From NCBI GenBank assembly GCA_042408215.1, contig JAYFMW010000030.1, positions 384,001-448,000 on the forward strand: 64,000 bases of DNA, in the 5' to 3' direction. Shown here piece by piece: positions 7,188 through 38,180 of the stretch (position 1 is its first letter; each line of letters opens with the position of its first letter). Position numbers and translations under genes: made by a program. The notes under the pieces are model-generated. The model was not told the DNA's origin, made no database searches, and was given only the letters and a program-made list of their open reading frames with translations. This DNA comes from Microcoleus sp. (GTDB lineage: Bacteria > Cyanobacteriota > Cyanobacteriia > Cyanobacteriales > Microcoleaceae).

Positions 7188-8150
7188 ATGGCAGTTAGTA
7201 TTCAATCGGCTCAATCTATTTTCTCCAACACCGAGATTGCTAGCGTTGTTCCGTCTACCACGGAAGCATTCTACAAACTCAGCGTTGAAGACCAACTAGC
7301 CTTGCTGTGGTATGCATACACCGAAATGGGCATTTCCATTACCGCAGCCGCCCCCGGAGTAGCCAGCATGGCCCTTGTCGAAGGCATACTTACTGAAATT
7401 AAGCAAATGTCGCCGGCTGCTCAAAGCAAAACCATGTTCGACTTGGCTAGCAATGCTGACACAACCATCGGCCGCATCTACACCTCCTTGCGCGTCAATA
7501 CCAAACTCGGTTTCTGGTACGAACTAGGACAATTGATGAAACAAGGCCTTGTCGCTCCGATCCCCGCTGGCTATCAAATGTCTCCCGAAGCCACCACAGT
7601 CCTTGAAACCATCAAAAAACTCGATCCCGGTCAGCAAATTACCGTACTGCGTAACACCGTAGTTCACATGGGCTACGATCCTGATTTTAGCCAAGAATAC
7701 GGCAAACGGTCAGCCCCTCGCAGCACTCCTACGGCTGTCGAGCAGCGGGTTAAAACCCAGATTGAAGGTATTAGCGAGCAGACTGTGCTTAGCTACATTG
7801 ACAACATGAATGCCTTCGACTTTACTCCTGCTGTCGCTTTATTTGCCGAAGAAGGTGCTCTGCAACCGCCGTTCCAAAAGCCGATTGTGGGTCGCGAAGC
7901 CATCCTCAACTATATGCGAGAAGAGTGCATCGGACTCAAAATGATGCCACAACAAGGCGTATCCGAACCCGCAGAAGATGGCTACCGCCAAGTGAAAGTG
8001 ACAGGTAAAGTCGAAACTCCTTGGTTTGGCTCGAATGTGGGTATGAACATTGCATGGCGCTTCTTGCTTGATCCCCAAGGTCAAATTTTCTTTGTGGCGA
8101 TCGACTTGTTAGCATCTCCCAAAGAATTGCTAAACTTGATCCGCAAATAG
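7188..8150 (+). CDS. ocp: Full-length orange carotenoid protein (NTD plus NTF2-like CTD)
   Basis: EDQLALLWYAY, KLGFWYELG, GQQITVLRN, GALQPPFQKPIVG, VTGKVETPWFG, FFVAIDLLASPKELL. Confidence 0.95.
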   Translation: MAVSIQSAQSIFSNTEIASVVPSTTEAFYKLSVEDQLALLWYAYTEMGISITAAAPGVASMALVEGILTEIKQMSPAAQSKTMFDLASNADTTIGRIYTSLRVNTKLGFWYELGQLMKQGLVAPIPAGYQMSPEATTVLETIKKLDPGQQITVLRNTVVHMGYDPDFSQEYGKRSAPRSTPTAVEQRVKTQIEGISEQTVLSYIDNMNAFDFTPAVALFAEEGALQPPFQKPIVGREAILNYMREECIGLKMMPQQGVSEPAEDGYRQVKVTGKVETPWFGSNVGMNIAWRFLLDPQGQIFFVAIDLLASPKELLNLIRK

Positions 8151-8323
8151 AAACTCCAGTTCTGTTAGTCAAACAGGACTCTACAGAAACCCAGATGCCC
8201 AAAGGTGTCTGGGTTTGATCGCGATCTCAAATCCTCTCTTCATCGGAATAGTAAATTTGAGTTAACAGTTAACAGTTAACAGTTAACCGTCAACAATCAT
8301 CTCCAAGAGTGCAACCGGAATTG

Positions 8324-8416
8324 ATCTCAAATCCTCTCTTCATCGGAATTATTCAGATCTCCATTCTCTCCCTCTGTGTCCTCTGTGTTCTCTGCGGTTA
8401 AATCATTCCGATACAA
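8324..8416. repeat. ~93 bp dispersed element; second, inverted copy at 57055-57147
   Basis: CAAATCCTCTCTTCATCGGAATTATTCAGAT...CTCTGTGTCCTCTGTGTTCTCTGCGGTTAAATCATTCCGATACAA aligns to the reverse complement of 57055-57147. Confidence 0.85.
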
Positions 8417-8834
8417 CAGCCAACAGTCAACAGCCAACAGTCAACAGTCAACAGCCAACAGTCAACATCACCTGACGGTGCAACCGGAATTGATATGAAT
8501 CGACCCTGAAAAGTCCCCCACTCGCCAGAGGAATGCTTAAGCTGGTCTACTGAGCTCTTTAGGACTTAGACAACTGGGCGACAATTGATGTTGAAAACCG
8601 GATATTTTAGGCCCAAATGCTTCACCATCCCTTTCGCTCTGAGTTCAGACTCCTATGCAATCTTTGATTTTGTTCGAGATGTCTATTTGACCAAATTGCT
8701 GGCTTGTCAAAAAGTTGATGGCCAATAACTCTCTTTCGTTGCTTTCATCACCGATCTAGAAAGCCGAAGTCAGAAGTCAGGAGTCAGTTGTTAGTTGCTA
8801 CCAATAACAAATAACCAATAACAACTAATTAACA

Positions 8835-8893
8835 ACTAATGACTAATGACTAATGACTAATGACTAATGACTAATGACTAATGACTAATGACT
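8835..8893. repeat. Heptamer STRR array (ACTAATG)n
   Basis: About 8 tandem copies visible. Confidence 0.9.
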
Positions 8894-8907
8894 TCTGATT
8901 AATTAGA

Positions 8908-9333
8908 CTAATTAATTTTTTCAGGTAAACTCGCTTCCAACGTCAGACAGTTACGACCATCTATTTGCAAACTGTAGTCTACCCGATCCATAAGTCTGCT
9001 CATAATCAGCCAGCCATAGCCACTTTCCTGTTTAGCTTCCGGCCGCGGGGGACTGTAAGTATCCATTTCGTAACCTTTACCGTAATCCCAAATTTCTAAA
9101 CCAATGTCCCTATCTTTTAATTTCAAACGAATTAACACGGGCAAATTAGGTTGATCTTTGTGAGCGTGGCGGATCACGTTAGAATAGGCTTCTGCTAACA
9201 CCAAACGCAAACGATTCGACTGACGAGGCCAATCGACGTGCTCTCCTAGTTCAACTTCTAAACTGCTAAGCAACCAATTTTCAACAATTGTTAAAAACCG
9301 CAAGTCGCTTGGCACATGAAGCTCAGTATTCAT
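8908..9333 (-). CDS. RsbW/SpoIIAB-like anti-sigma Ser kinase (HATPase_c_2)
   Basis: LVLAEAYSNVIRHAH, EIWDYGKG, ESGYGWLIM. Confidence 0.9.
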   Translation of the reverse strand: MNTELHVPSDLRFLTIVENWLLSSLEVELGEHVDWPRQSNRLRLVLAEAYSNVIRHAHKDQPNLPVLIRLKLKDRDIGLEIWDYGKGYEMDTYSPPRPEAKQESGYGWLIMSRLMDRVDYSLQIDGRNCLTLEASLPEKIN

Positions 9334-9512
9334 AAAAAATCCTGTAAGTTTGGAAACCCTGTGTCTTCCGACCAGGGATGAAACACGCGGTGCCGAATTG
9401 ATTCGGCGTGAATATTTGCTGCTACAGGGGAGATGCTCAATTGAGGAGGGTCAACTTAGGGCTTCAGTTTTTTAGGCCCGAAGCCCCAGACTTCTAGTTG
9501 GGGGTTCTTGAC
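9334..9512. mobile_element. 179-bp non-autonomous IS200/IS605 derivative with both ends; minus strand resembles the 5' part of a HEARO/IscB omegaRNA
   Basis: Left-end hairpin GAAACCCTGTGTCTTCCGACCAGGG and right-end hairpin GAAGCCCCAGACTTCTAGTTGGGGG...TTGAC. Removing it restores a 4-nt stop-to-start spacing. Confidence 0.7.
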
Positions 9513-9516
9513 AGAT

Positions 9517-11190
9517 TCAGAGAACCTCCAGAGAGAGTATGGTTTGGTCGTCTTCCTGCACTGGATTATCAGCTCGGATGTGAGCCAATAAGTTGTCCAA
9601 GTTTAAGCAACCAGGCTCCTCAATCAGGAGTTGCCACAGCCCTTCTTGTTGTAACATGGAACGAGTTTGTTGACCCCCTGCGATCGCCTGATTAGTGACA
9701 GTCGCTTCAGTAATCCCATCGCTCGTCAGCAGAAATACATCTCCTGATTTTAGTTCGATCGTACCCGATTTTCCCTTCCACACTGGCAGTATCCCCAAGG
9801 GGATGCCACGAGCTTTGAGGAAATTCGGTTCTACCGGTGTTGCACCGCCAGCGGCTTGAGCTTTCACCTCCGAGTGAGACCAAACTATCGGATAGATGTG
9901 ACCAGCATTGGCAAAAGCCAGGTGTCCCGTGGAGGGCGTGTAACGAGCTACAACCATTGTAATAAAATGGTTGTTACCAATTAAGTCATCAGCCATACTG
10001 CTATTCATGTTCAGCATGACTTGGCTTGGTTCGGGAGAAATTTCTACACTGAGTTCCCGTCGCATTACCGAAATGGCACTAGCCATAAATAGAGCAGCCG
10101 GAACACCCTTACCGGAAACATCTCCCACCGCGATCCAAATATCCCCTTGGGAGTGAACGTAGACTTCAAAAAAGTCGCCACCAACTTCCCGTGCAGGATA
10201 GCAGCAAGCTTGGACTCTGACCGTTTCAAAATCCGGCCAACTTTGACGCAACAAGTTTGTTTGGATTTGGCGAGCCACCTCCAACTCATTTTGCATCTGC
10301 TGGGCTAAATCCAGAGTCCGCTGGTAGAGTTTAGCTTGGGAGAGAGCGAGGGCAGCTTGAGCAGCTACACCTTCGATTAACTCTATATCTTCCGCCGACC
10401 AAGTATTGCTATTGCCAACTTGGCACAGTGCAAGTACCGCCAGAATGTCTTGCTGGTAAGTCAGTGGCACCGCAATCTCAACCGAGTTACCGTCATTTTT
10501 ACTGCCGCTTTGCAGTTGAGTTTGGCGGCTGGCTACGGCTTGAATCAGCAAATCTTCATTAAAAGAAAAGCTGGTGGTTTCTGCTGTTTGGGATTGGTAG
10601 GGGAAAGTGCTCGGCAATAAGCGTGAGCCCTCTACTGGCCGTAGCATACAATAGCTGGCCTCAAAAGTTTGACCTACGGTTTGGACAATAGTTTGTACCA
10701 TACTAGAGTAATCTAGCGACCCGCGAATCACGCTCATCACCTCATTGAACAGAGATTCTTTGCGTAAAGCGCGACGCAGTGCGACGTTCCGCTGCCTGTA
10801 GTATTTGTAAGTTTCTGAGGCTTGATTAATAACCGATTTTAGTTCTTCTGGATTCCACGGTTTGGTGATGTATTTGAAAACTTGACCTGAGTTGATGGCC
10901 TCCACCAAGTCTTCAACATCAGTGTATCCCGTCAAGAGAATCCGAATCGTATCGGGAAAGCGCTCGACTGTTTTGCCCAAAAATTCAGTGCCATTCATTT
11001 CAGGCATCCGCTGGTCAGATATAATCACCGCCATCTCGCCCTGTTCGTCTAGAACTTGAAGGGCACTGAGGGCGCTATCTGCTTTATAAACTTGAAAGTC
11101 GCGTCGAAACGTCCGGTACAGCAAATCCAAGTTGTCGGGTTCGTCATCGACTACCATTAGTTTCAGCTTGCTTCCATCTCCCCGACTCAT
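9517..11190 (-). CDS. Response regulator-GAF-PP2C (SpoIIE/RsbU-like) phosphatase
   Basis: Receiver (VVDDE, ISDQRMP, ITKPW), GAF region, and EVGGDF, GDVSGKG, NAGH, SDGITEA, EDDQT. Confidence 0.93.
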   Translation of the reverse strand: MSRGDGSKLKLMVVDDEPDNLDLLYRTFRRDFQVYKADSALSALQVLDEQGEMAVIISDQRMPEMNGTEFLGKTVERFPDTIRILLTGYTDVEDLVEAINSGQVFKYITKPWNPEELKSVINQASETYKYYRQRNVALRRALRKESLFNEVMSVIRGSLDYSSMVQTIVQTVGQTFEASYCMLRPVEGSRLLPSTFPYQSQTAETTSFSFNEDLLIQAVASRQTQLQSGSKNDGNSVEIAVPLTYQQDILAVLALCQVGNSNTWSAEDIELIEGVAAQAALALSQAKLYQRTLDLAQQMQNELEVARQIQTNLLRQSWPDFETVRVQACCYPAREVGGDFFEVYVHSQGDIWIAVGDVSGKGVPAALFMASAISVMRRELSVEISPEPSQVMLNMNSSMADDLIGNNHFITMVVARYTPSTGHLAFANAGHIYPIVWSHSEVKAQAAGGATPVEPNFLKARGIPLGILPVWKGKSGTIELKSGDVFLLTSDGITEATVTNQAIAGGQQTRSMLQQEGLWQLLIEEPGCLNLDNLLAHIRADNPVQEDDQTILSLEVL

Positions 11191-11305
11191 AAAAACTCTC
11201 GTTAAGTGGGAAACTCAGTGTCTAAAGACCTGAGAGGTAAACGACCCTTCGACTACGAGGAAGGGCATCGCACGAGCGGTTGAAACCGCCGTGAATCTTT
11301 CTTTA
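11191..11305 (+). mobile_element. Orphan IS200/IS605 left end
   Basis: TCAT|...GGAAACTCAGTGTCTAAAGACCTGAGAGG...GCGGTTGAAACCGC is homologous to the left end at 9334, and its hairpin matches the right end at 13821-13855. Confidence 0.6.
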
Positions 11306-11434
11306 GCATGACACGGGAGTTGCTTGATAGGAGTGTACTTTTGTAATGCACTTTCGGTGGGACTCGGCTACGCGAACGTGCATCGCTGTTACCACCTCAA
11401 ACTTTGCAACTCGCGATCGCATGGCCGGGCCGAA

Positions 11435-12337
11435 TCAAATTAATTTTTCTGCCAGTCTGAGCTTAGCAGAACGAGCGCGGGGATTTCTACTTACTTCTTC
11501 CGATTGTGCAATAATCGGCTTTTTTGTCAGTACGCGCAAACAGTCTGTGGCTCTGAGTTGGTGCTTAACCGGTCTGTCTTCGAGACTGTGAAAAGTAATA
11601 ATTCCGAGCCTCCCACCGGGTTTTAACCACCTTGGCGCTTGGTTGAGGAAAGTTTCTAGAGAAGCCAGTTCCGAGTTGACGGCTATCCTTAGTGCTTGGA
11701 AAGTACGAGTGGCTGGATGGATTCTGCCATTACGCTGCTTGGGTGGGAAGGTGCTGGCGATCGCACCAGCGAGTTCTGTTGTACTGTCAAAAGGACGCCC
11801 TTGCACAATCCGCCTGGCGATGCGGCGAGACAGTCGCTCCTCGCCGTATTTATAAATGATCTCCGCTAGTTTAACTTCATCCCAGTGATTGATCATCTCT
11901 TCAGCCGTCAAAGATTGCTGTTGGTTCATACGCATATCTAACTTAGCTGGATGGCGAAAACTAAAGCCACGTTCCGGTGTATCGAACTGAGCCGAGCTAA
12001 CGCCTAAGTCTGCTATGATACCATCAAATGTGGAATCTTGAGAGTGATAGTCAGCAAAATTGCCGTGCCAAAACTCGACGGGAGCGTTAGCAAATCGGGT
12101 TTGGCAAAAACGGATGGCTTGTTCATCGCGATCGATCGCCACCACTGTAACATCAGCCGCCGCCGCTAAAATCAAACCAGTGTGTCCACCGCCTCCTAAT
12201 GTCGCGTCCAAATAGTGGCCGCCTGGGCGCACACCCAAACCCGCAATTAACTCTTGACCCAAAACTGGAACGTGATAGGTGTCAACACTGACATCTGATC
12301 CAAGGGTGTCCTTCTCAGAAAGCTCAATATCCTTCAT
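11435..12337 (-). CDS. rsmH: 16S rRNA m4C1402 methyltransferase
   Basis: [56 protein letters not shown]. Confidence 0.96.
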
Positions 12338-13855
12338 AATAATAATATGGGATCCGGGAAACGAGCGAGACTTTAGTCCTTCCTAGGGAAGCTCTAAGGG
12401 GGACTTCAGTCCCCGTGTTCTTTCTTTCTTAGCCGAATAGTGTATGTCTTCTATTTGACGTATCCACTATAATCGTTTAAGCTAAAAAGATCAACCAATC
12501 TTCAGGAAAGCAGAGGTGAATAAAACCCAAAGAATTATGGGAGTTCAGCAAGTATTGCTGTCTCCAACCAAAGAAGTTCAAGCATTGTTGGAGTATCTCT
12601 GTCAACAATCTGGTAAACTGTATAACAGTGGTATTTATTTGGCTCGTCAGACTTTTTTTAAGACAGAAAAACTGTTGACTGGAAAATTTGACTTGTCTGT
12701 TGAATCGTCAGTGTCAAAATCACTGGTTGCTAAATCGTTGCCATCAACACCAATGCAGCAAACATTGATGTCAGTCACAGAAGCCTTCAAATCTTTTAAA
12801 GAATTAAGAGATTTGTACAGGAAAGGTCAATTGCATTTTAAGCCCAAGCCACCGGGATATCTGAAAGGGTCTAAGCTGTTCAAAGTAGCTTATCCAAATT
12901 CTGGAGGATTAAGACCTAAACTTGTTGGAAATCAGTTAAAATTTTCCTTGGGTTTAACAGTGAGGCGATGGTTTGGAATTCCTGAATTCTTTCTACCCAT
13001 GCCATCAAATCTTGATTTTTCCAAGGTTAAAGAGTTTACGATTCTTCCTAAGAATGGTGCTTTTTACCTGGAAATGTCCTACGAAGTCGAAAAAGAACAA
13101 CATAATCTGGACATTAATCAAGCGTTATCAATTGACTTGGGAACTGCTGACAATCTAGCAGCTTGTGTCGATACACTAGGAAACTCCTTCTTAATTGATG
13201 CTCGTGCCATGAAAGCGATGAATCAATTGTGGAACAAGAAAGTAGCAACTAGAAAAGAAGGAAAATCCGAAGGTTATTGGGACAATTGGTTAGATCGTGT
13301 AACCCGTAAACGCAATCACCAAATGCGTGACGGTGTTAACAAATCAGCTTTGTTAATTGTCAACCATTGTCTGAAATTTGGAATTGGCACACTGATAGTT
13401 GGGTGGAATGAAGGTTTCAATTCTAATAGTAATCTAGGCAAAGTGAATAATCAAAAGTTTGTTCAAATGCCTTTAGGTAAGCTGAAAAATAGGTTAAAAG
13501 AACTGTGCGATTTGCACTGCATCAGGTTTGTTGAAACCGAAGAAGCGTATACATCGAAAGCTAGTTTTCTGGATGGAGACTCCCTACCCAAATATGGTAA
13601 AAAACCATCTGGGTGGAAAGCGTCTGGAAAGCGGATTGAACGTGGCTTGTATCGGTCAGCTAATGGTACTGTAGTGAATGCAGACTTAAATGGTGCTGCC
13701 AACATTCTGAGAAAAGTAGCCAGTAAGTTAGGTATAGACTTAAACCAACTGGGTAGACGTTGTTTGACGACCGTAGCGAGAGTTAGACTTTGGGTATTAC
13801 CCAAGCCTAGTTCTGTCCGCAGAATCTCAGCGTATGAAAGACCTGAGAGTGTCAA
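12338..13855 (+). mobile_element. tnpB-only IS200/IS605 element between rsmH and ndhH
   Basis: TCAT target, then a degenerate left end (GGGAAAC...GGGGACTTCAGTCCCC). Right end GAATCTCAG...CTGAGAGTGTCAA. Confidence 0.75.
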
Positions 13856-13895
13856 AATCTATAAAAGCGAAACAAAAATCAACAATAGTCAGTAA
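12516..13895 (+). CDS. tnpB: TnpB (IS605 OrfB) RNA-guided nuclease family
   Basis: SIDLG (RuvC-I), IVGWN, EEAYTSK, NADLNGAANI (RuvC-III). Confidence 0.92.
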   Translation: MNKTQRIMGVQQVLLSPTKEVQALLEYLCQQSGKLYNSGIYLARQTFFKTEKLLTGKFDLSVESSVSKSLVAKSLPSTPMQQTLMSVTEAFKSFKELRDLYRKGQLHFKPKPPGYLKGSKLFKVAYPNSGGLRPKLVGNQLKFSLGLTVRRWFGIPEFFLPMPSNLDFSKVKEFTILPKNGAFYLEMSYEVEKEQHNLDINQALSIDLGTADNLAACVDTLGNSFLIDARAMKAMNQLWNKKVATRKEGKSEGYWDNWLDRVTRKRNHQMRDGVNKSALLIVNHCLKFGIGTLIVGWNEGFNSNSNLGKVNNQKFVQMPLGKLKNRLKELCDLHCIRFVETEEAYTSKASFLDGDSLPKYGKKPSGWKASGKRIERGLYRSANGTVVNADLNGAANILRKVASKLGIDLNQLGRRCLTTVARVRLWVLPKPSSVRRISAYERPESVKIYKSETKINNSQ

Positions 13896-13913
13896 TCATT
13901 AATTCATTTAATT

Positions 13914-15098
13914 ATGTCAAGAATTGAGACTAGAACCGAACCGATGGTGCTGAACATGGGGCCGCACCACCCATCCATGCACGGGGTACTCCGGTTAATC
14001 GTCACCCTAGACGGGGAAGACGTAGTGGACTGCGAGCCTGTTTTAGGCTATCTGCACCGTGGGATGGAAAAAATTGCCGAAAATCGCACAAACGTGATGT
14101 ACGTGCCCTACGTGAGCCGCTGGGACTACGCTGCGGGGATGTTTAACGAAGCGGTGACAGTCAATGCACCGGAAAAGTTGGCGAATATTGCTGTCCCCAA
14201 ACGGGCTAGTTATATTCGGGTAATTATGCTGGAGTTGAACCGGATTGCTAACCACTTGATGTGGGTAGGGCCGTTTTTGGCGGACGTGGGAGCCCAAACT
14301 CCTTTCTTCTATACTATGCGCGATCGCGAACCGATTCTCGATTTATGGGAAGCAGCCACCGGTTATCGCATGGTGAATAATAACTATTTCCGCATTGGCG
14401 GAGTTGCGGCAGATTTACCCTACGGTTGGGTAGATAAGTGCGAAGATTTCTGCGATTACTTCCTTCCCAAAATTGACGAATACGAACGTTTAATCACCAA
14501 CAATCCTATCTTCCGCCGCCGGATTGAAGGGCTGGGTACTATTTCTCGCAACGAAGCGATTAACTGGGGACTATCCGGCCCCATGTTGCGCGGTTCCGGC
14601 GTCAATTGGGATTTGCGGAAAGTTGACCATTACGAATGTTATGACGACTTCGACTGGGAAGTTTGTACAGAAGCTGCGGGCGATTGTTTAGCCCGGTATT
14701 TGGTACGAATTCGGGAGATGCGCGAGTCAGTGAAGATTATCTATCAAGCCTTGAAAGGAATCCCCGGCGGCCCTTACGAGAATTTGGAAGCGAAGCGACT
14801 CGAAAGCGGGCCAAAATCCGAGTGGAATAGTTTTCAATATCAGTTTATTGGCAAAAAAGTCGCGCCGACTTTTAAGATTCCCAAGGGCGAACATTATGTC
14901 CGCGTTGAAAGCGGCAAAGGTGAGTTGGGGATTTACATTATCGGAGACGATAGTACATTTCCTTGGCGCTGGAAGATTCGGGCTGCGGACTTTAATAATT
15001 TGCAGATTTTGCCTCACATTGTGCGCGGCGTGAAGATTGCGGATTTGGTGGCGATTTTGGGAAGTATCGACATTATTATGGGTTCAGTGGATAGGTAG
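13914..15098 (+). CDS. ndhH: NAD(P)H-quinone oxidoreductase subunit H
   Basis: [41 protein letters not shown]. Confidence 0.98.
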
Positions 15099-15207
15099 AA
15101 AAAAAGGCGATCGCATTTTAGGGCTGTCAGCAAAAAAGTGCGATCCTCTTCGAGGGCTTCGCTAACGCCCTTTTTTGCATCAGATAAAGTCCAGGGCACA
15201 TAATACC

Positions 15208-15274
15208 AAAGAAACCGGGTTTTTTACTTCAACTGTCGGCTACAACGAAAGATTTTCGTAAAAACCCGGTTTCT
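15208..15274. repeat. AGAAACCGGGTTTTT...AAAAACCCGGTTTCT inverted-end element; other copies at about 20289-20357, 45228-45291 and 57163-57227
   Basis: Conserved inverted termini around a variable core, directly visible. Confidence 0.8.
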
Positions 15275-15394
15275 GACTACCCATAAATCTGGGACTGTAT
15301 ATATTAACAATATTTCTCTCTTCTCTCTTCCTCTGTGCCCTCTGCGCCCTCTGCGGTAAAAAAAATCTTTATTTCATCTTTGCTTCGATAAACT

Positions 15395-16600
15395 ATGACA
15401 TTTCAGAAATTAGATATCAATGACAGCAACCCGGAACTCTGCGATTTAATCTGCGAAAGAATTGCCGCAACTCCGCAGCAGCGAATTACCTTTGCTGAAT
15501 ATATGGATTTAGCATTATATCATCCGCAGTATGGTTACTATAATAGCGATCGCCCGGCGATCGGCAAACAAGGCGATTTTATCACGTCGTCTGATTGGGG
15601 TGCTGATTTTGCCGAGGTTTTGGCGGAGCAATTTGTGGAAATGTGGGAAATTCTCGATCGCCCTCAAAACTTCACAACCGTAGAAATGGGCGCTGGGCGG
15701 GGAACTTTCGCCAAAAATGTGCTGCAATACCTGCAACGGCAACATCCCGACTTATTTAAAACTTTAACATACATAATTGTTGAAATTTCGCCAATACTGC
15801 AAGCAGAACAACGGCAAAGTTTAGGTGATATCAAGTGTGTTAAATGGTGTCAGTGGGACGAGATAGTTGATAATTCAATTGTCGGCTGTTGTTTTTCTAA
15901 TGAATTAGTTGATGCTTTCCCCGTGCATCAATTCATTCTGGATCAAGGGCAAGTTATGGAAATTTATATTACCACAGAATCCCCAAAAAGTCAACAAAAA
16001 GAGATCGAATTTGTTGAGGTACTTGGCGAAGTATCTACACCTAAAATTGCTGAATATTTTGATTTTCTAGGCATAGATTTATCGGCGAGTGTTTACGGGG
16101 ATGGTTATCGCAGTGAGGTGAATTTGGCGGCTTTGGATTGGATGAGTACAGTTGCTCAAAAGTTGCAGCGGGGATATTTGTTAACTATTGATTACGGCCA
16201 TCCAGCGCACCGCTATTATAATCCGAGGCGCAGGGAGGGGACGCTACAGTGTTATTATCTGCACCGATATCACAATAATCCTTATATTAATGTGGGGCGG
16301 CAGGATTTGACGGCTCATGTCAATTTTACGGCGTTGGAAAAGCAGGGTGAATTGTGCGGTTTGGATGTGGTAGGGTTTACTCAGCAGGCTTTGTTTTTGA
16401 TGGCGTTGGGTTTGGGCGATCGGATTGCTTCTCTATCCACAAGTGTATTAGATGTGGCAACGTTGTTGCGGCGCAGGGAGGCTTTGCATCGGTTGATCGA
16501 TCCGATGGGTTTGGGGGGTTTTGGGGTTTTGGTGCAGTGTAAGGGGTTGAGGGAGGGGGGAAAGGGGAGAATATTGAAGGGTTTGATGGTGCCTGATTGA
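15395..16600 (+). CDS. MidA/NDUFAF7-family SAM-dependent methyltransferase
   Basis: ITFAEYMDLALYHP..GYY, GDFITS, VEMGAGRG, SNELVDAFP, TIDYG, QDLTAHVNF. Confidence 0.92.
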   Translation: MTFQKLDINDSNPELCDLICERIAATPQQRITFAEYMDLALYHPQYGYYNSDRPAIGKQGDFITSSDWGADFAEVLAEQFVEMWEILDRPQNFTTVEMGAGRGTFAKNVLQYLQRQHPDLFKTLTYIIVEISPILQAEQRQSLGDIKCVKWCQWDEIVDNSIVGCCFSNELVDAFPVHQFILDQGQVMEIYITTESPKSQQKEIEFVEVLGEVSTPKIAEYFDFLGIDLSASVYGDGYRSEVNLAALDWMSTVAQKLQRGYLLTIDYGHPAHRYYNPRRREGTLQCYYLHRYHNNPYINVGRQDLTAHVNFTALEKQGELCGLDVVGFTQQALFLMALGLGDRIASLSTSVLDVATLLRRREALHRLIDPMGLGGFGVLVQCKGLREGGKGRILKGLMVPD

Positions 16601-16649
16601 TTATCCCAGATTGATAAGCTGTTCTCCATTTAAACCAGTAACGAGGCTA

Positions 16650-16713
16650 GTAGGGTGCGTCAGCTAGAACCCTTACGCTGAAACGGAAAACCTTAGATAC
16701 TGACGCACCCTAC
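16650..16713. repeat. GTAG-type REP-like inverted repeat
   Basis: GTAGGGTGCGTCAG...CTGACGCACCCTAC. A related copy lies at 32974-33039. Confidence 0.75.
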
Positions 16714-16746
16714 GCCAGGAGTTTAAATGCCGAACAGCTTAATTAA

Positions 16747-17322
16747 CTAATTAAGCTGTTTTTTAACCGCACGAGCGATTAAAGGTGCTTTTTTTTCTAA
16801 CCCTTCTAAATTAAGTTCATTCTCTAGATACATCCGATACCACTCCTGACGTTGTTCAATCACCCATTCACTATTCTGAAGCTGTAACTGTTTGATGGTA
16901 AATTCGGCTCGATCGCGATCGCCGGAAGGAACCGCATCAGTCAAAACCAACTGACAAGAAGGTAGGATAATCTCAAACCAATTATCTTCCACTTCAAACG
17001 GATCGAGAATTTGTCGATCGTAAGTTCCTTTGCAGCTATTTACCCGTTGCAAAGCATAGCGATAGTTTTTCCATTCATAAATCAAATGGCGGTTTTCTGC
17101 TTTACTTTTACTCAAATAATGATCGACAGTTCCCATCCGACTCGGTATATACATAACTGAATAGCCACAAAGATTTTGGAACCCTTTAGCTAATGCGGGT
17201 TTTAAGGTAGACCAAAAATCCTTTGGTTCTTTCCCAGGATTGTTAACTAACCAATTATTGCCTGCTTTTCGCACTTTTTCCTCAAAATTTGCTGGTTCCG
17301 GTGGCGGAGTAAATTGTATCAT
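16747..17322 (-). CDS. HNH endonuclease (PtuB-like)
   Basis: CGYS...GTVDHY.SKS...LIYEWKNYRY...VNSCKG...ILDPF. The ATG at 17322 lies 2 nt after the ATPase stop, with GAGG upstream. Confidence 0.85.
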   Translation of the reverse strand: MIQFTPPPEPANFEEKVRKAGNNWLVNNPGKEPKDFWSTLKPALAKGFQNLCGYSVMYIPSRMGTVDHYLSKSKAENRHLIYEWKNYRYALQRVNSCKGTYDRQILDPFEVEDNWFEIILPSCQLVLTDAVPSGDRDRAEFTIKQLQLQNSEWVIEQRQEWYRMYLENELNLEGLEKKAPLIARAVKKQLN

Positions 17323-36826: not shown

Positions 36827-38180
36827 CAAAAGTTTGGGTCTAAAGCCCCGTCCTTCTAGGACGGCTTTAATTTCTATAAAGTGTAAATAATTCTTAAATA
36901 TATGCACTTTGCGAATACAATGCTCTGCAAAAACGATAGAATAATAGCATGATTGTACTAGAGTTCAAGTTAAAAGGTAAAGCGCAGCAGTATCGGGTCA
37001 TAGACGAAATGATCCGCACAGCGCAATTTGTCCGAAACAAAACTCTTAGGCACTGGATTGATCATCAAGGAGTTAAGCTAGTCGATCTATACAAACAATG
37101 CGCCATCATGGCCAAAGAGTTTGAATGGGCGGGTAAGCTTAACTCAACTGCACGTCAAGCTTCGGCTGAACGTGCCATTTTTGCTATTCAACGTTTTTTC
37201 TCGAATTGCCAAGCTAAAAAACCAGGGAAAAAAGGATACCCACAGTTTAAGAAACACACCCGTTCAGTAGAGTACAAACAGTCAGGTTGGGCGCTTTCTA
37301 ACGACAAAAGATGCTTGACGTTTAAAGACGGCTTCGCTGCTGGAAAATTCAAGTTACTCGGTAGTCGAGACTTGCACTTCTATGCGCCTGATGAAATCAA
37401 ACGAATCAGAGTAATCCGTCGTGCCGATGGCTACTACGCCCAATTTTGTATCAACGTGGAACGGACAGAGGAAACAATTCCTACTGGCAAAGCCGTAGGG
37501 TTGGACGTGGGTTTAAACCATTTCTATACCGATAGTACCGGGGTAACAGTTCCAAATCCTCGACATCTCCGTAAAAGTGAAAAAGCTTTAAAGCGGTCGC
37601 AGAAAAGGGTTTCCAGAAAAAAGAAAGGTTCTGGCAATCGTAAAAAAGCTATCAATAAGTTAGGAAGAAAACACCTGAAAGTCAGTAGGCAACGCAAAGA
37701 CTTCGCCATAAAGACGGCGTTGTGCGCGGTAAAATCTAGCGATTTTGTAGCCTACGAAAACCGCCCGGTGCGGAATATGGTGAAAAACCATAAACTTGCA
37801 AAATCAATTAGCGATGCAGCTTGGTCACAGTTTGCTCAATGGTTAGAATATTTTGGAAAAGTGTACGGTAAAACAGTAGTTGCTGTTGCTCCTCAATATA
37901 CTTCTCAAGATTGCTCAACCTGTGGCAATAGTGTTAAGAAAACGCTATCAACTAGAACTCATGTTTGCAGTTGTGGCACGGTATTAGATCGCGATCACAA
38001 TGCAGCTCTGAATATTCTGGCAAAAGGATTAAAACAAACAGGAATCAATCTAAATACGGTGGGGCACACCGAAATTAACGCTTGGGGACAGAACGACCTC
38101 TACTCGTTGGTGGTAGCATCAGCGGGCAAGCCGACTGATTGAACCAAGAATCCTCGTGCCTTCAGGCCGAGGAGTGTCAA
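36827..38180 (+). mobile_element. tnpB-only IS605-group element (IS608-like ends)
   Basis: TTAC target at 36823-36826. Left end AAAGCCCCGTCCTTCTAGGACGGC, right end GAATCCTCG...CGAGGAGTGTCAA. Confidence 0.9.
36949..38142 (+). CDS. tnpB: TnpB
   Basis: GLDVG, AYEN, CSTCG..CSCG zinc finger, DRDHNAA. The D-E-D triad is intact. Confidence 0.94.
   Translation: MIVLEFKLKGKAQQYRVIDEMIRTAQFVRNKTLRHWIDHQGVKLVDLYKQCAIMAKEFEWAGKLNSTARQASAERAIFAIQRFFSNCQAKKPGKKGYPQFKKHTRSVEYKQSGWALSNDKRCLTFKDGFAAGKFKLLGSRDLHFYAPDEIKRIRVIRRADGYYAQFCINVERTEETIPTGKAVGLDVGLNHFYTDSTGVTVPNPRHLRKSEKALKRSQKRVSRKKKGSGNRKKAINKLGRKHLKVSRQRKDFAIKTALCAVKSSDFVAYENRPVRNMVKNHKLAKSISDAAWSQFAQWLEYFGKVYGKTVVAVAPQYTSQDCSTCGNSVKKTLSTRTHVCSCGTVLDRDHNAALNILAKGLKQTGINLNTVGHTEINAWGQNDLYSLVVASAGKPTD

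Follow-up and report, generated by a model that had tools for sequence, protein, structure and literature searches.

Three consecutive genes start at the left ends of IS200/IS605-type elements

We studied a window of 64 kb from the genome of Microcoleus sp. (GCA_042408215.1, contig JAYFMW010000030.1; G000:C30:384001-448000), by which we mean the whole stretch of DNA that was analysed, and to which all positions without a contig prefix refer. Three consecutive genes on the minus strand, encoding an RsbW-like anti-sigma kinase, a REC-GAF-PP2C (SpoIIE-type) phosphatase and the 16S rRNA methyltransferase RsmH, begin with ATGA, which reads TCAT on the plus strand, and at each of these TCAT words (sites 1, 2 and 3) the left end of an insertion sequence (IS) of the IS200/IS605 type begins at the next base (Table 1). 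Both the sequence and the list of open reading frames (ORFs) agree with the initial annotation in this arrangement, and Pfam assigns the same identities to the genes as it had proposed (rsbW-like, spoIIE-like and rsmH). The motif GGAAAC lies 18, 18 and 19 nt after TCAT (9352-9357, 11209-11214 and 12357-12362), and the pattern TCATN{18,19}GGAAAC has exactly three matches on the two strands of the window, all of them on the three starts, with 0.30 expected per window (standard deviation 0.54) and a count of three reached by 1 of 100 shuffles.

Table 1. Features around the three TCAT/ATGA sites, in window positions.
Feature	Position	Strand	Basis
rsbW-like anti-sigma kinase gene, 141 amino acids (aa), start ATGA	8908-9333	-	Pfam HATPase_c_2, E 6e-20
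TCAT target word, site 1 (antisense of the rsbW-like ATGA)	9330-9333	+	
Insertion-derived spacer, PP2C stop to rsbW start; left-end remnant ~9334-9420, guide GAAA 9353-9356, hairpin 9357-9377	9334-9516	+	fold, nhmmer, relatives
REC-GAF-PP2C (SpoIIE-type) phosphatase gene, 557 aa, start ATGA	9517-11190	-	Pfam Response_reg+GAF+SpoIIE
TCAT target word, site 2 (PP2C gene)	11187-11190	+	empty site, TCAT then GCTATTCCC, in 6 relatives
Left half of 'type b' MITE (miniature inverted-repeat transposable element), no right end; guide GAAA 11210-11213, hairpin 11214-11234	11191-~11423	+	BLAST, alignments, fold
rsmH, 16S rRNA m4C1402 methyltransferase, 300 aa, start ATGA	11435-12337	-	Pfam Methyltransf_5
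TCAT target word, site 3 (rsmH)	12334-12337	+	
IS200/IS605-type element, 1,518 bp, tnpB kept, tnpA lost	12338-13855	+	
Left guide GAAA of the TnpB element	12358-12361	+	pairing rule from PMC5934647
Promoter-like TTGATC-17-TATAGT, outward through the left end to rsmH	12466-12494	-	consensus scan
tnpB ORF, 459 aa from GTG (ATG at 12548)	12516-13895	+	Pfam OrfB_IS605 E 8e-14, Cas12f1-like_TNB E 5e-6
Right end: guide GAAT 13822-13825, hairpin 13826-13848, cleavage word TCAA 13852-13855	13822-13855	+	
Native rsmH-ndhH spacer, 58 nt, cut off from rsmH by the element	13856-13913	.	matches whole L012 spacer
ndhH	13914-15098	+	ORF list, Pfam

Whole-genome searches by BLAST and iterated nhmmer identified the sequence after each TCAT as a repeat family whose homology starts at the very next base. 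Its members have subterminal hairpins, of a type common to left and right ends (CTCAG-N-GNC ... GNC-CTGAG), and no terminal inverted repeats; there is no target duplication, the right end closes in its own four-base word, and the family has TnpB and, in full-length paralogues, a Y1 TnpA. Of the 20 genome matches to PF01797 (Y1 TnpA), three lie within full copies of the site 3 element, and right-end matches closing in TCAA number 157. Genome repeats, anatomy and the empty sites described below bear out the earlier proposal that all three sites hold IS200/IS605-type left ends. PATE-type elements (palindrome-associated transposable elements) are non-autonomous IS200/IS605 derivatives, and MITE/PATE-like derivatives of 350-580 bp, which keep both ends, lack a transposase gene and have a TGAC- or TCAA-type right end, were found at many loci, with five identical 405-bp copies at different loci. 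Copy orientations along C30 and C6 are mixed, in a 30-contig assembly with an unmapped origin.

The initial annotation placed an IS-type hairpin after GGAAAC in each case. At sites 1 and 2 DNA folding gives a bulged hairpin directly 3' of GAAA, and site 3 folds into two different hairpins (12379-12391 and 12399-12414). Single-fold z-scores are weak for the left hairpins (-0.5 to -1.1), against -2.6 for the right-end hairpin at 13826-13848; thus it is family conservation and not folding energy that supports the left hairpins. In some subfamilies, site 3 included, the lower stem is a chimera and does not pair. Two stem versions, CTCAG/CTGAG and GAGCG/CGCTC, occur either matched or as non-pairing chimeras (window 12363-12391; C6:209966; C14:58764), and since chimeric-stem left ends include recently moved copies, the elements may be able to do without the lower stem, or parts may be swapped between ends. 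A scan of window positions 8000-17000 against Rfam at E values up to 1 returned no guide-RNA family, the only match being a chance one to a microRNA.

Two further right ends of IS200/IS605 type, from another subfamily (...CCAAGAATCCTCG...GAGTGTCAA), lie at window positions 38180 and 46942 (C30:422180 and C30:430942). We additionally noted an unrelated short repeat, ...TAGTCCTGGACGCACGGGTGGTCAGAAACCGGGTTTTTT..., with more than 100 genome copies (for example C14:104232 and C6:446015), which resembles a small mobile hairpin or terminator-like unit and of which one copy sits within a TCAT-family left end. One of the seeds used with nhmmer, a copy on C14, drew in this repeat, and the matches to the repeat were removed before counting.

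Gain of elements at the three sites

The element at site 3 was delimited by three observations. Five paralogues match it up to ...GAGAGTGTCAA (closing ...GAGTGTCAA) and diverge beyond; 11 relatives have an empty site at rsmH, reading CTTCAT followed directly by AATCTATAA..., identical to the window sequence after 13855; and a contig from an environmental RNA library (run X1) joins 12337 to 13856, omitting 1,518 bases. Metatranscriptome contigs were used for this joint only, and not for expression. As the relatives continue after TCAT with the sequence that the window has after 13855, the insertion was scarless. Full paralogues of 2,056 bp (C30:360685-362740 and C13:77061-79116) have a 135-aa Y1 TnpA ORF between left end and tnpB, divergent from tnpB, and a third full copy with tnpA lies on C17; compared with these, the window copy has lost tnpA through a deletion of ~400 bp. 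Its tnpB ORF overruns the right end of the element by 40 nt and stops 18 nt before the ATG of ndhH. The native rsmH-ndhH spacer measures ~57 nt in relative L012, and in the window ndhH has become the immediate downstream neighbour of tnpB, with both genes reading the same way. Tandem repeats with a 7-nt unit (CAACAGT and TAATGAC types) form long runs at window positions 8230-8480 and 8780-8900 and in the rsmH-ndhH spacers of relatives, their length differing greatly among species in the same spacer.

The insertion at site 2 is a fragment. Intact 'type b' copies measure 350-580 bp and close in ...CAAG-hairpin-TTAC-TGAC, and the window copy matches them to about position 233 (~11423) and not beyond. 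Six relatives have an empty site here, with TCAT followed directly by GCTATTCCCTACTCCTAGG..., a native leader that contains AGGAG; in the window, this leader and the remainder of the rsmH-PP2C spacer have been deleted. Homology among relatives stops exactly at the PP2C start codon, which in seven of them (L014-L018, L020 and L021) is occupied by a 465-468 bp unit of a second family, family B (see below). L014 also carries a nested MITE with a GAAG guide and a TCAC flank, for which L016 has the matching empty site.

At site 1, one and the same left-end-like sequence follows TCAT in 14 of 14 loci from the same genus, in spacers of 133-645 nt with a variable middle part. By contrast, in six of seven loci from other genera the gap from the PP2C stop to the ATGA of the rsbW orthologue is no more than 3-4 nt, and GGAGG lies within the last PP2C codons. 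In the seventh, G023, a separate insertion of ~870 nt occupies the same TCAT, and its related left end, read in reverse, gives AGGAGG 7 nt before the ATG. All seven outgroup loci have the N-terminus M-x-TEL-x-VPSDL at the same position. By this distribution, the left end at site 1 is as old as the genus.

Guide sequences covary with the flanking word

In IS608, as described in the accessible parts of two studies (PMC3201880, PMC5934647), the left guide AAAG goes with the cleavage word TTAC and the right guide GAAT with TCAA, each guide lying directly 5' of its hairpin foot, and the stated pairs A+16:T-3 and A+17:T-4 indicate that the first guide base pairs with the second base of the word, and the second guide base with the first. 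From the two IS608 guide/word combinations we infer that guide position 4 would pair with word position 4, with position 3 non-canonical.

We identified five guide/word pairs that are consistent with this scheme at positions 1, 2 and 4. GAAA goes with TCAT in 57 of 62 left-end matches in the genome, as the initial annotation had expected of further copies, and GAAG goes with TCAC in all nine copies found in other species, the nested L014 copy being a tenth. AAAA accompanies TTAT in 59 copies of an abundant second family, and the one TCAT-family copy with an AAAA guide (C5:672437) has a TTAT flank. Among right ends, GAAT is matched by TCAA, and of the 47 type b ends 43 combine CAAG and TGAC. 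Natural covariation of guide and flank, which is a correlation, supports the earlier suggestion that GAAA specifies TCAT by the IS608 pattern, and the landing word TCAT is predicted to be recognized through the GAAA guide at the foot of the hairpin. Matches starting beyond position 10 of the hidden Markov model, right-end matches among them, and the five left-end matches without TCAT were set aside before copies were counted.

The covariation of GAAA/TCAT, GAAG/TCAC and AAAA/TTAT is a natural confirmation of the reprogrammable target rule known from IS608 in vitro, and it predicts the target-adjacent motif (TAM) of the associated TnpB nucleases from sequence alone; at site 3, TCAT would double as the TAM of the element's own TnpB.

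Two other families were compared. The TTAT family is abundant and young, with ~59 left ends, units of ~1.55 kb and short derivatives (for example G000:C12:48400-49953); its left end reads TTAT, then AAGAAATACCCTG-AAAA-CCCTG..., while at the right end it has the GAAT/TCAA combination. Family B, with the left end CTGTCTTCCCCC... (that is, beginning CTGTCTTCCCCCTTGGAGA...) and GAGA-type guides, has TCAT in 12 of 12 genome copies (for example C3:79295 and C10:172597), and reversed it gives GGGGG 7 nt before the ATG.

Docking at start codons across the genome

Thirty-four of the 57 TCAT-flanked copies are docked, in that an ORF of at least 100 aa opens exactly at the ATG of the flank, and two of the other 23 open shorter real genes, for ribosomal protein S16 (95 aa) and a DUF1816 protein (92 aa). 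The docked genes include fusA, rplS, hisG, chlB, cbiC, psb27 and those for arginine decarboxylase, signal peptidase I (lepB), a class A penicillin-binding protein, a STAS-domain protein and an OmpR-type regulator. A Pfam family was found in 29 of the 34 docked ORFs, and in 16 of them model positions 1-3 align within residues 1-25, indicating that those 16 N-termini are genuine. The STAS-domain gene (anti-sigma antagonist-like; G000:C8:84300-84626) is docked by a MITE left end, which brings the partner-switching-type genes with such leaders to three (STAS, PP2C and rsbW-like), a coincidence that chance could produce.

The docked share far exceeds expectation. Setting 2,101 ATGA starts against 15,055 intergenic TCAT sites gave a null of 0.122, weighting by observed pentamers raised it to 0.141, and counting every ATGA in the genome with 100 or more open codons raised it to 0.155; against such a null of 12-15%, 34 of 57 has a binomial p of ~4e-14. 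The TTAT family served as a control: its left flank faces starts 26 times and stops 27 times, and never lies less than 11 nt from a start, whereas in the TCAT family 45 flanks face a start and 10 a stop, the distance being 0 in 30 copies (Fisher p = 5e-4 between the families). At 29 loci in other species of the genus, which as kin are not independent, TCAT was present in 27 and an open frame of at least 100 codons in 19. Family B is docked in 7 of 12 copies, counted on ORFs of at least 100 aa without a Pfam check. A right end lies within 2.1 kb in 49 of the 57 TCAT copies and 28 of the 34 docked ones, and the notion that most docked copies are solo left ends that cannot be deleted was rejected on this ground.

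Leaders of the docked genes

Comparison with the empty sites of relatives, which show different native leaders at intact genes, upholds the view of the initial annotation that the coding sequences are intact and the leaders replaced: native leaders have been displaced at rsmH and rsbW and deleted at PP2C. The AGGA at site 1 and GAGAG at site 2 that it had pointed out are both present, 5-6 nt before the ATG; the leaders read ACAGGATTTTTT-ATG at site 1 and CGAGAGTTTTT-ATG at site 2, with nothing comparable at site 3. A 4-base Shine-Dalgarno core occurs in only 8 of the 34 docked left ends, compared with 24% of all genes, and the left end is ruled out as a general donor of such sequences. The family-wide leader feature is a run of T before the ATG. 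No stop-free reverse frame spans the element: docked copies have an in-frame stop at a median distance of 8 codons ahead of the ATG, which would keep ribosomes from reading through.

At site 3, the native upstream DNA of rsmH is now 1.5 kb distant. The promoter-like site in Table 1 lies, by alignment, in the segment upstream of tnpA in full copies, and this orphaned tnpA-side site (12494-12466) is likely to act as a new rsmH promoter, a suggestion that we offer as a lead only. Rewired expression of the partner-switching genes and of rsmH, as the initial annotation envisaged, is plausible.

Survival after insertion and aimed insertion

The initial annotation held that the family targets start codons. 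The large docking excess fits this idea, but the family uses TCAT anywhere, 23 of the 57 copies being undocked, and its youngest copies dock at chance. With identity to the nearest paralogue as a proxy for age, docked copies make up 2 of 10 at 97% or more, 7 of 14 at 85-97% and 25 of 33 below 85% or without a paralogue (trend z = 3.3; young versus old, Fisher p = 0.0025). The young class does not differ from a null of 0.14 (p = 0.42), and none of the five identical 405-bp copies is docked. All four sites common to this genome and other species, in the 29-locus sample, are docked. Because docking is no commoner than chance among young copies and prevails among old ones, longer retention is a likelier cause than aimed insertion. 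In the accessible part of a study of related elements (10.1101/2023.03.14.532601) excision is far commoner than integration, which would make loss the default fate and retention the limiting step. We therefore think it probable, with some reservation, that the docking excess arose because docked copies survived longer after unbiased landing at TCAT. The reading as a whole, namely three left ends 3' of TCAT, a word read by the guide, and an excess owed to survival more than to aim, we hold with good confidence; survival and an insertion bias may also both have acted.

The course of events could be as follows. TnpA would insert the element, as a circle of single-stranded DNA, beside whichever TCAT is accessible. 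Copies that come to lie between an ATG and its leader would be tolerated, the antisense of the left end providing a usable leader, made up of the T-run before the ATG plus AGGA, GAGG or GAGAG in some subfamilies, with transcription coming through or out of the element. Decay of the native leader, or its deletion as at site 2, would then make the gene dependent on the element, and docked copies would be kept while copies elsewhere were lost by excision and deletion.

Several observations weigh against this account. The age proxy is confounded with subfamily, all young copies having a ...ACGGGATGCGGG left end and old ones mostly ...TCGGTAAGTGGG, and the null is built on crude gene calls, which take the first ATG and ORFs of 100 aa or more. 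Repeated hits on the same start codons also fit insertion hot spots: the rsmH start was hit independently in this lineage and in G004, the PP2C start by family A here and by family B in seven relatives, and the rsbW start in the genus ancestor and separately in G023. The right end persists in 49 of 57 copies, so docked copies are not merely undeletable stumps, and precise excision would presumably restore a working gene for as long as the native leader is intact, so that the dependency step would need time. Weighing likewise against an active leader are the scarcity of Shine-Dalgarno cores noted above and the promoter consensus scan, which at 7 sites in the region against 6.0 expected is not above shuffles (nor is the terminator scan, 6 against 4.7). 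Contigs of four metatranscriptome runs in Logan do bridge the rsbW, PP2C and rsmH junctions, but as evidence of expression they lack strand and ends, may include DNA carry-over and come from mixed related strains.

The chief competitor to survival is aimed insertion, in which the transposase complex or the state of the target favours TCAT at start codons, through melted or single-stranded gene 5' ends or through extra flank pairing. In its favour, separate lineages show independent hits on all three start codons of the window, in two cases from different element families; the insertions at sites 2 and 3 are of fairly recent date, being found among the loci of 14 relatives only in G008 (98% identity), with site 3 absent from an environmental strain; in the 100 nt upstream of genes, 30 copies sit at the start codon itself and only 5 elsewhere; and three of nine TCAC-type copies adjoin ORFs starting with GTG, one of them glyA with a complete N-terminal serine hydroxymethyltransferase domain. 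Engineered extra pairing can, moreover, narrow the target choice of IS608, according to the accessible part of one study (PMC5934647). However, the youngest copies dock no more often than expected, the flanks 5' of TCAT have no common motif beyond a mild preference for T (TTCAT in 28 of 57), and the TTAT family shows no attraction to gene starts; we regard aimed insertion as rather unlikely, though deserving of serious consideration.

Two further explanations would remove mobile DNA, or its landing at existing genes, from the account, and both are extremely improbable. The GGAAAC-hairpin might be a conserved regulatory RNA motif of 5' untranslated regions, as its presence in the 5' leader of at least 34 genes, a compensatory change in the stem between sites 1 and 2 and its retention at site 1 across the genus might suggest. 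Yet the module is the left part of units that have a matching right end in 49 of 57 cases, some with tnpB and tnpA; these units are gained and lost scarlessly at orthologous sites, 23 of the 57 copies adjoin no ORF of at least 100 aa (the two on shorter real genes among them), and the Rfam search up to E of 1 returned no family bar the chance microRNA match. Alternatively, the near-invariant TCAT, which could formally fall inside the homology between copies, might be part of an element that brings its own ATG and so makes new or shifted starts. Against this, empty sites retain TCAT, insertion-free outgroup orthologues begin at the same ATGA, the flank word shifts with the guide (TCAC with GAAG, TTAT with AAAA), and Pfam domains begin at the N-terminus.

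We tentatively put forward a bolder idea, which we think has somewhat less than an even chance of being right: TCAT-seeking left ends may have evolved into portable leaders, with the T-run and in some cases GAGG, AGGAGG or GGGGG at 5-8 nt, that allow the element to settle between an ATG and the gene's own leader without destroying gene function and to be fixed there by a dependency ratchet. On this idea essential genes such as fusA, rplS, rpsP, lepB and rsmH would be expressed from transposon DNA, and operons such as PP2C-rsbW would be uncoupled. If docked copies do serve as leaders, a common transposon family would keep supplying core genes with new 5' regions. Mobile DNA would then be the origin of leaders at genes for translation factors and ribosomal proteins and in a partner-switching module, and these leaders, which differ among close species, would amount to a natural experiment on how far replacement of promoters and ribosome sites is tolerated. 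For annotation, such a left end shows where the adjacent gene truly starts in about six of ten cases.

Comparison with known systems

The elements are ordinary members of IS200/IS605 and their non-coding derivatives; what we add is the within-genome docking count with its controls, the age gradient and the covariation of guide and word. A full-text search that took in few subscription journals and no supplements found no literature on docking at start codons or leader replacement by IS200/IS605 elements, the closest case being the IS605 stem-loops of Borrelia discussed below.

As far as the accessible parts of He et al. 2011 (PMC3201880) and Morero et al. 2018 (PMC5934647) go, IS608 (ISHp608) of Helicobacter pylori resembles the present elements in its subterminal imperfect hairpins with a bulged base, in the 4-nt guide directly 5' of each hairpin foot, in insertion 3' of a 4-nt word that is left outside the element without target duplication, in a right end closed by a word of its own, the GAAT/TCAA pair being literally identical, and in the combination of tnpA and tnpB, here seen in full copies. 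The differences are that TCAT here goes with GAAA, compared with TTAC and AAAG in IS608; that the distance from word to hairpin foot is 23 nt here and 19 in IS608, and that from the right hairpin to TCAA 3-4 nt here and 10 in IS608; and that here tnpA is divergent from tnpB and most copies are non-coding derivatives of 350-480 bp. The start-codon habit is not described for IS608 in those parts of the two papers.

In Geobacillus stearothermophilus, the elements ISGst5 and ISGst2 have the TAM/target words TTCAT and TTTAT, which resemble those of our TCAT and TTAT families, and the same word serves TnpA and the RNA-guided nuclease, with excision measured at orders of magnitude above integration (Meers et al. 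preprint, 10.1101/2023.03.14.532601, accessible part). ISGst5 differs in carrying IscB and not TnpB, and the same part of the preprint, which deals with nuclease homing, does not say where the elements lie with respect to start codons. Finally, the IS605 stem-loops of Borrelia (Delihas 2009, PMC2775950), as far as the accessible text describes them, are likewise short end-hairpin units beside host genes that outnumber autonomous copies; they lie, however, downstream of the stop codons of lipoprotein genes, whereas the left end in Microcoleus directly adjoins the start codon in antisense orientation and takes the place of the leader.

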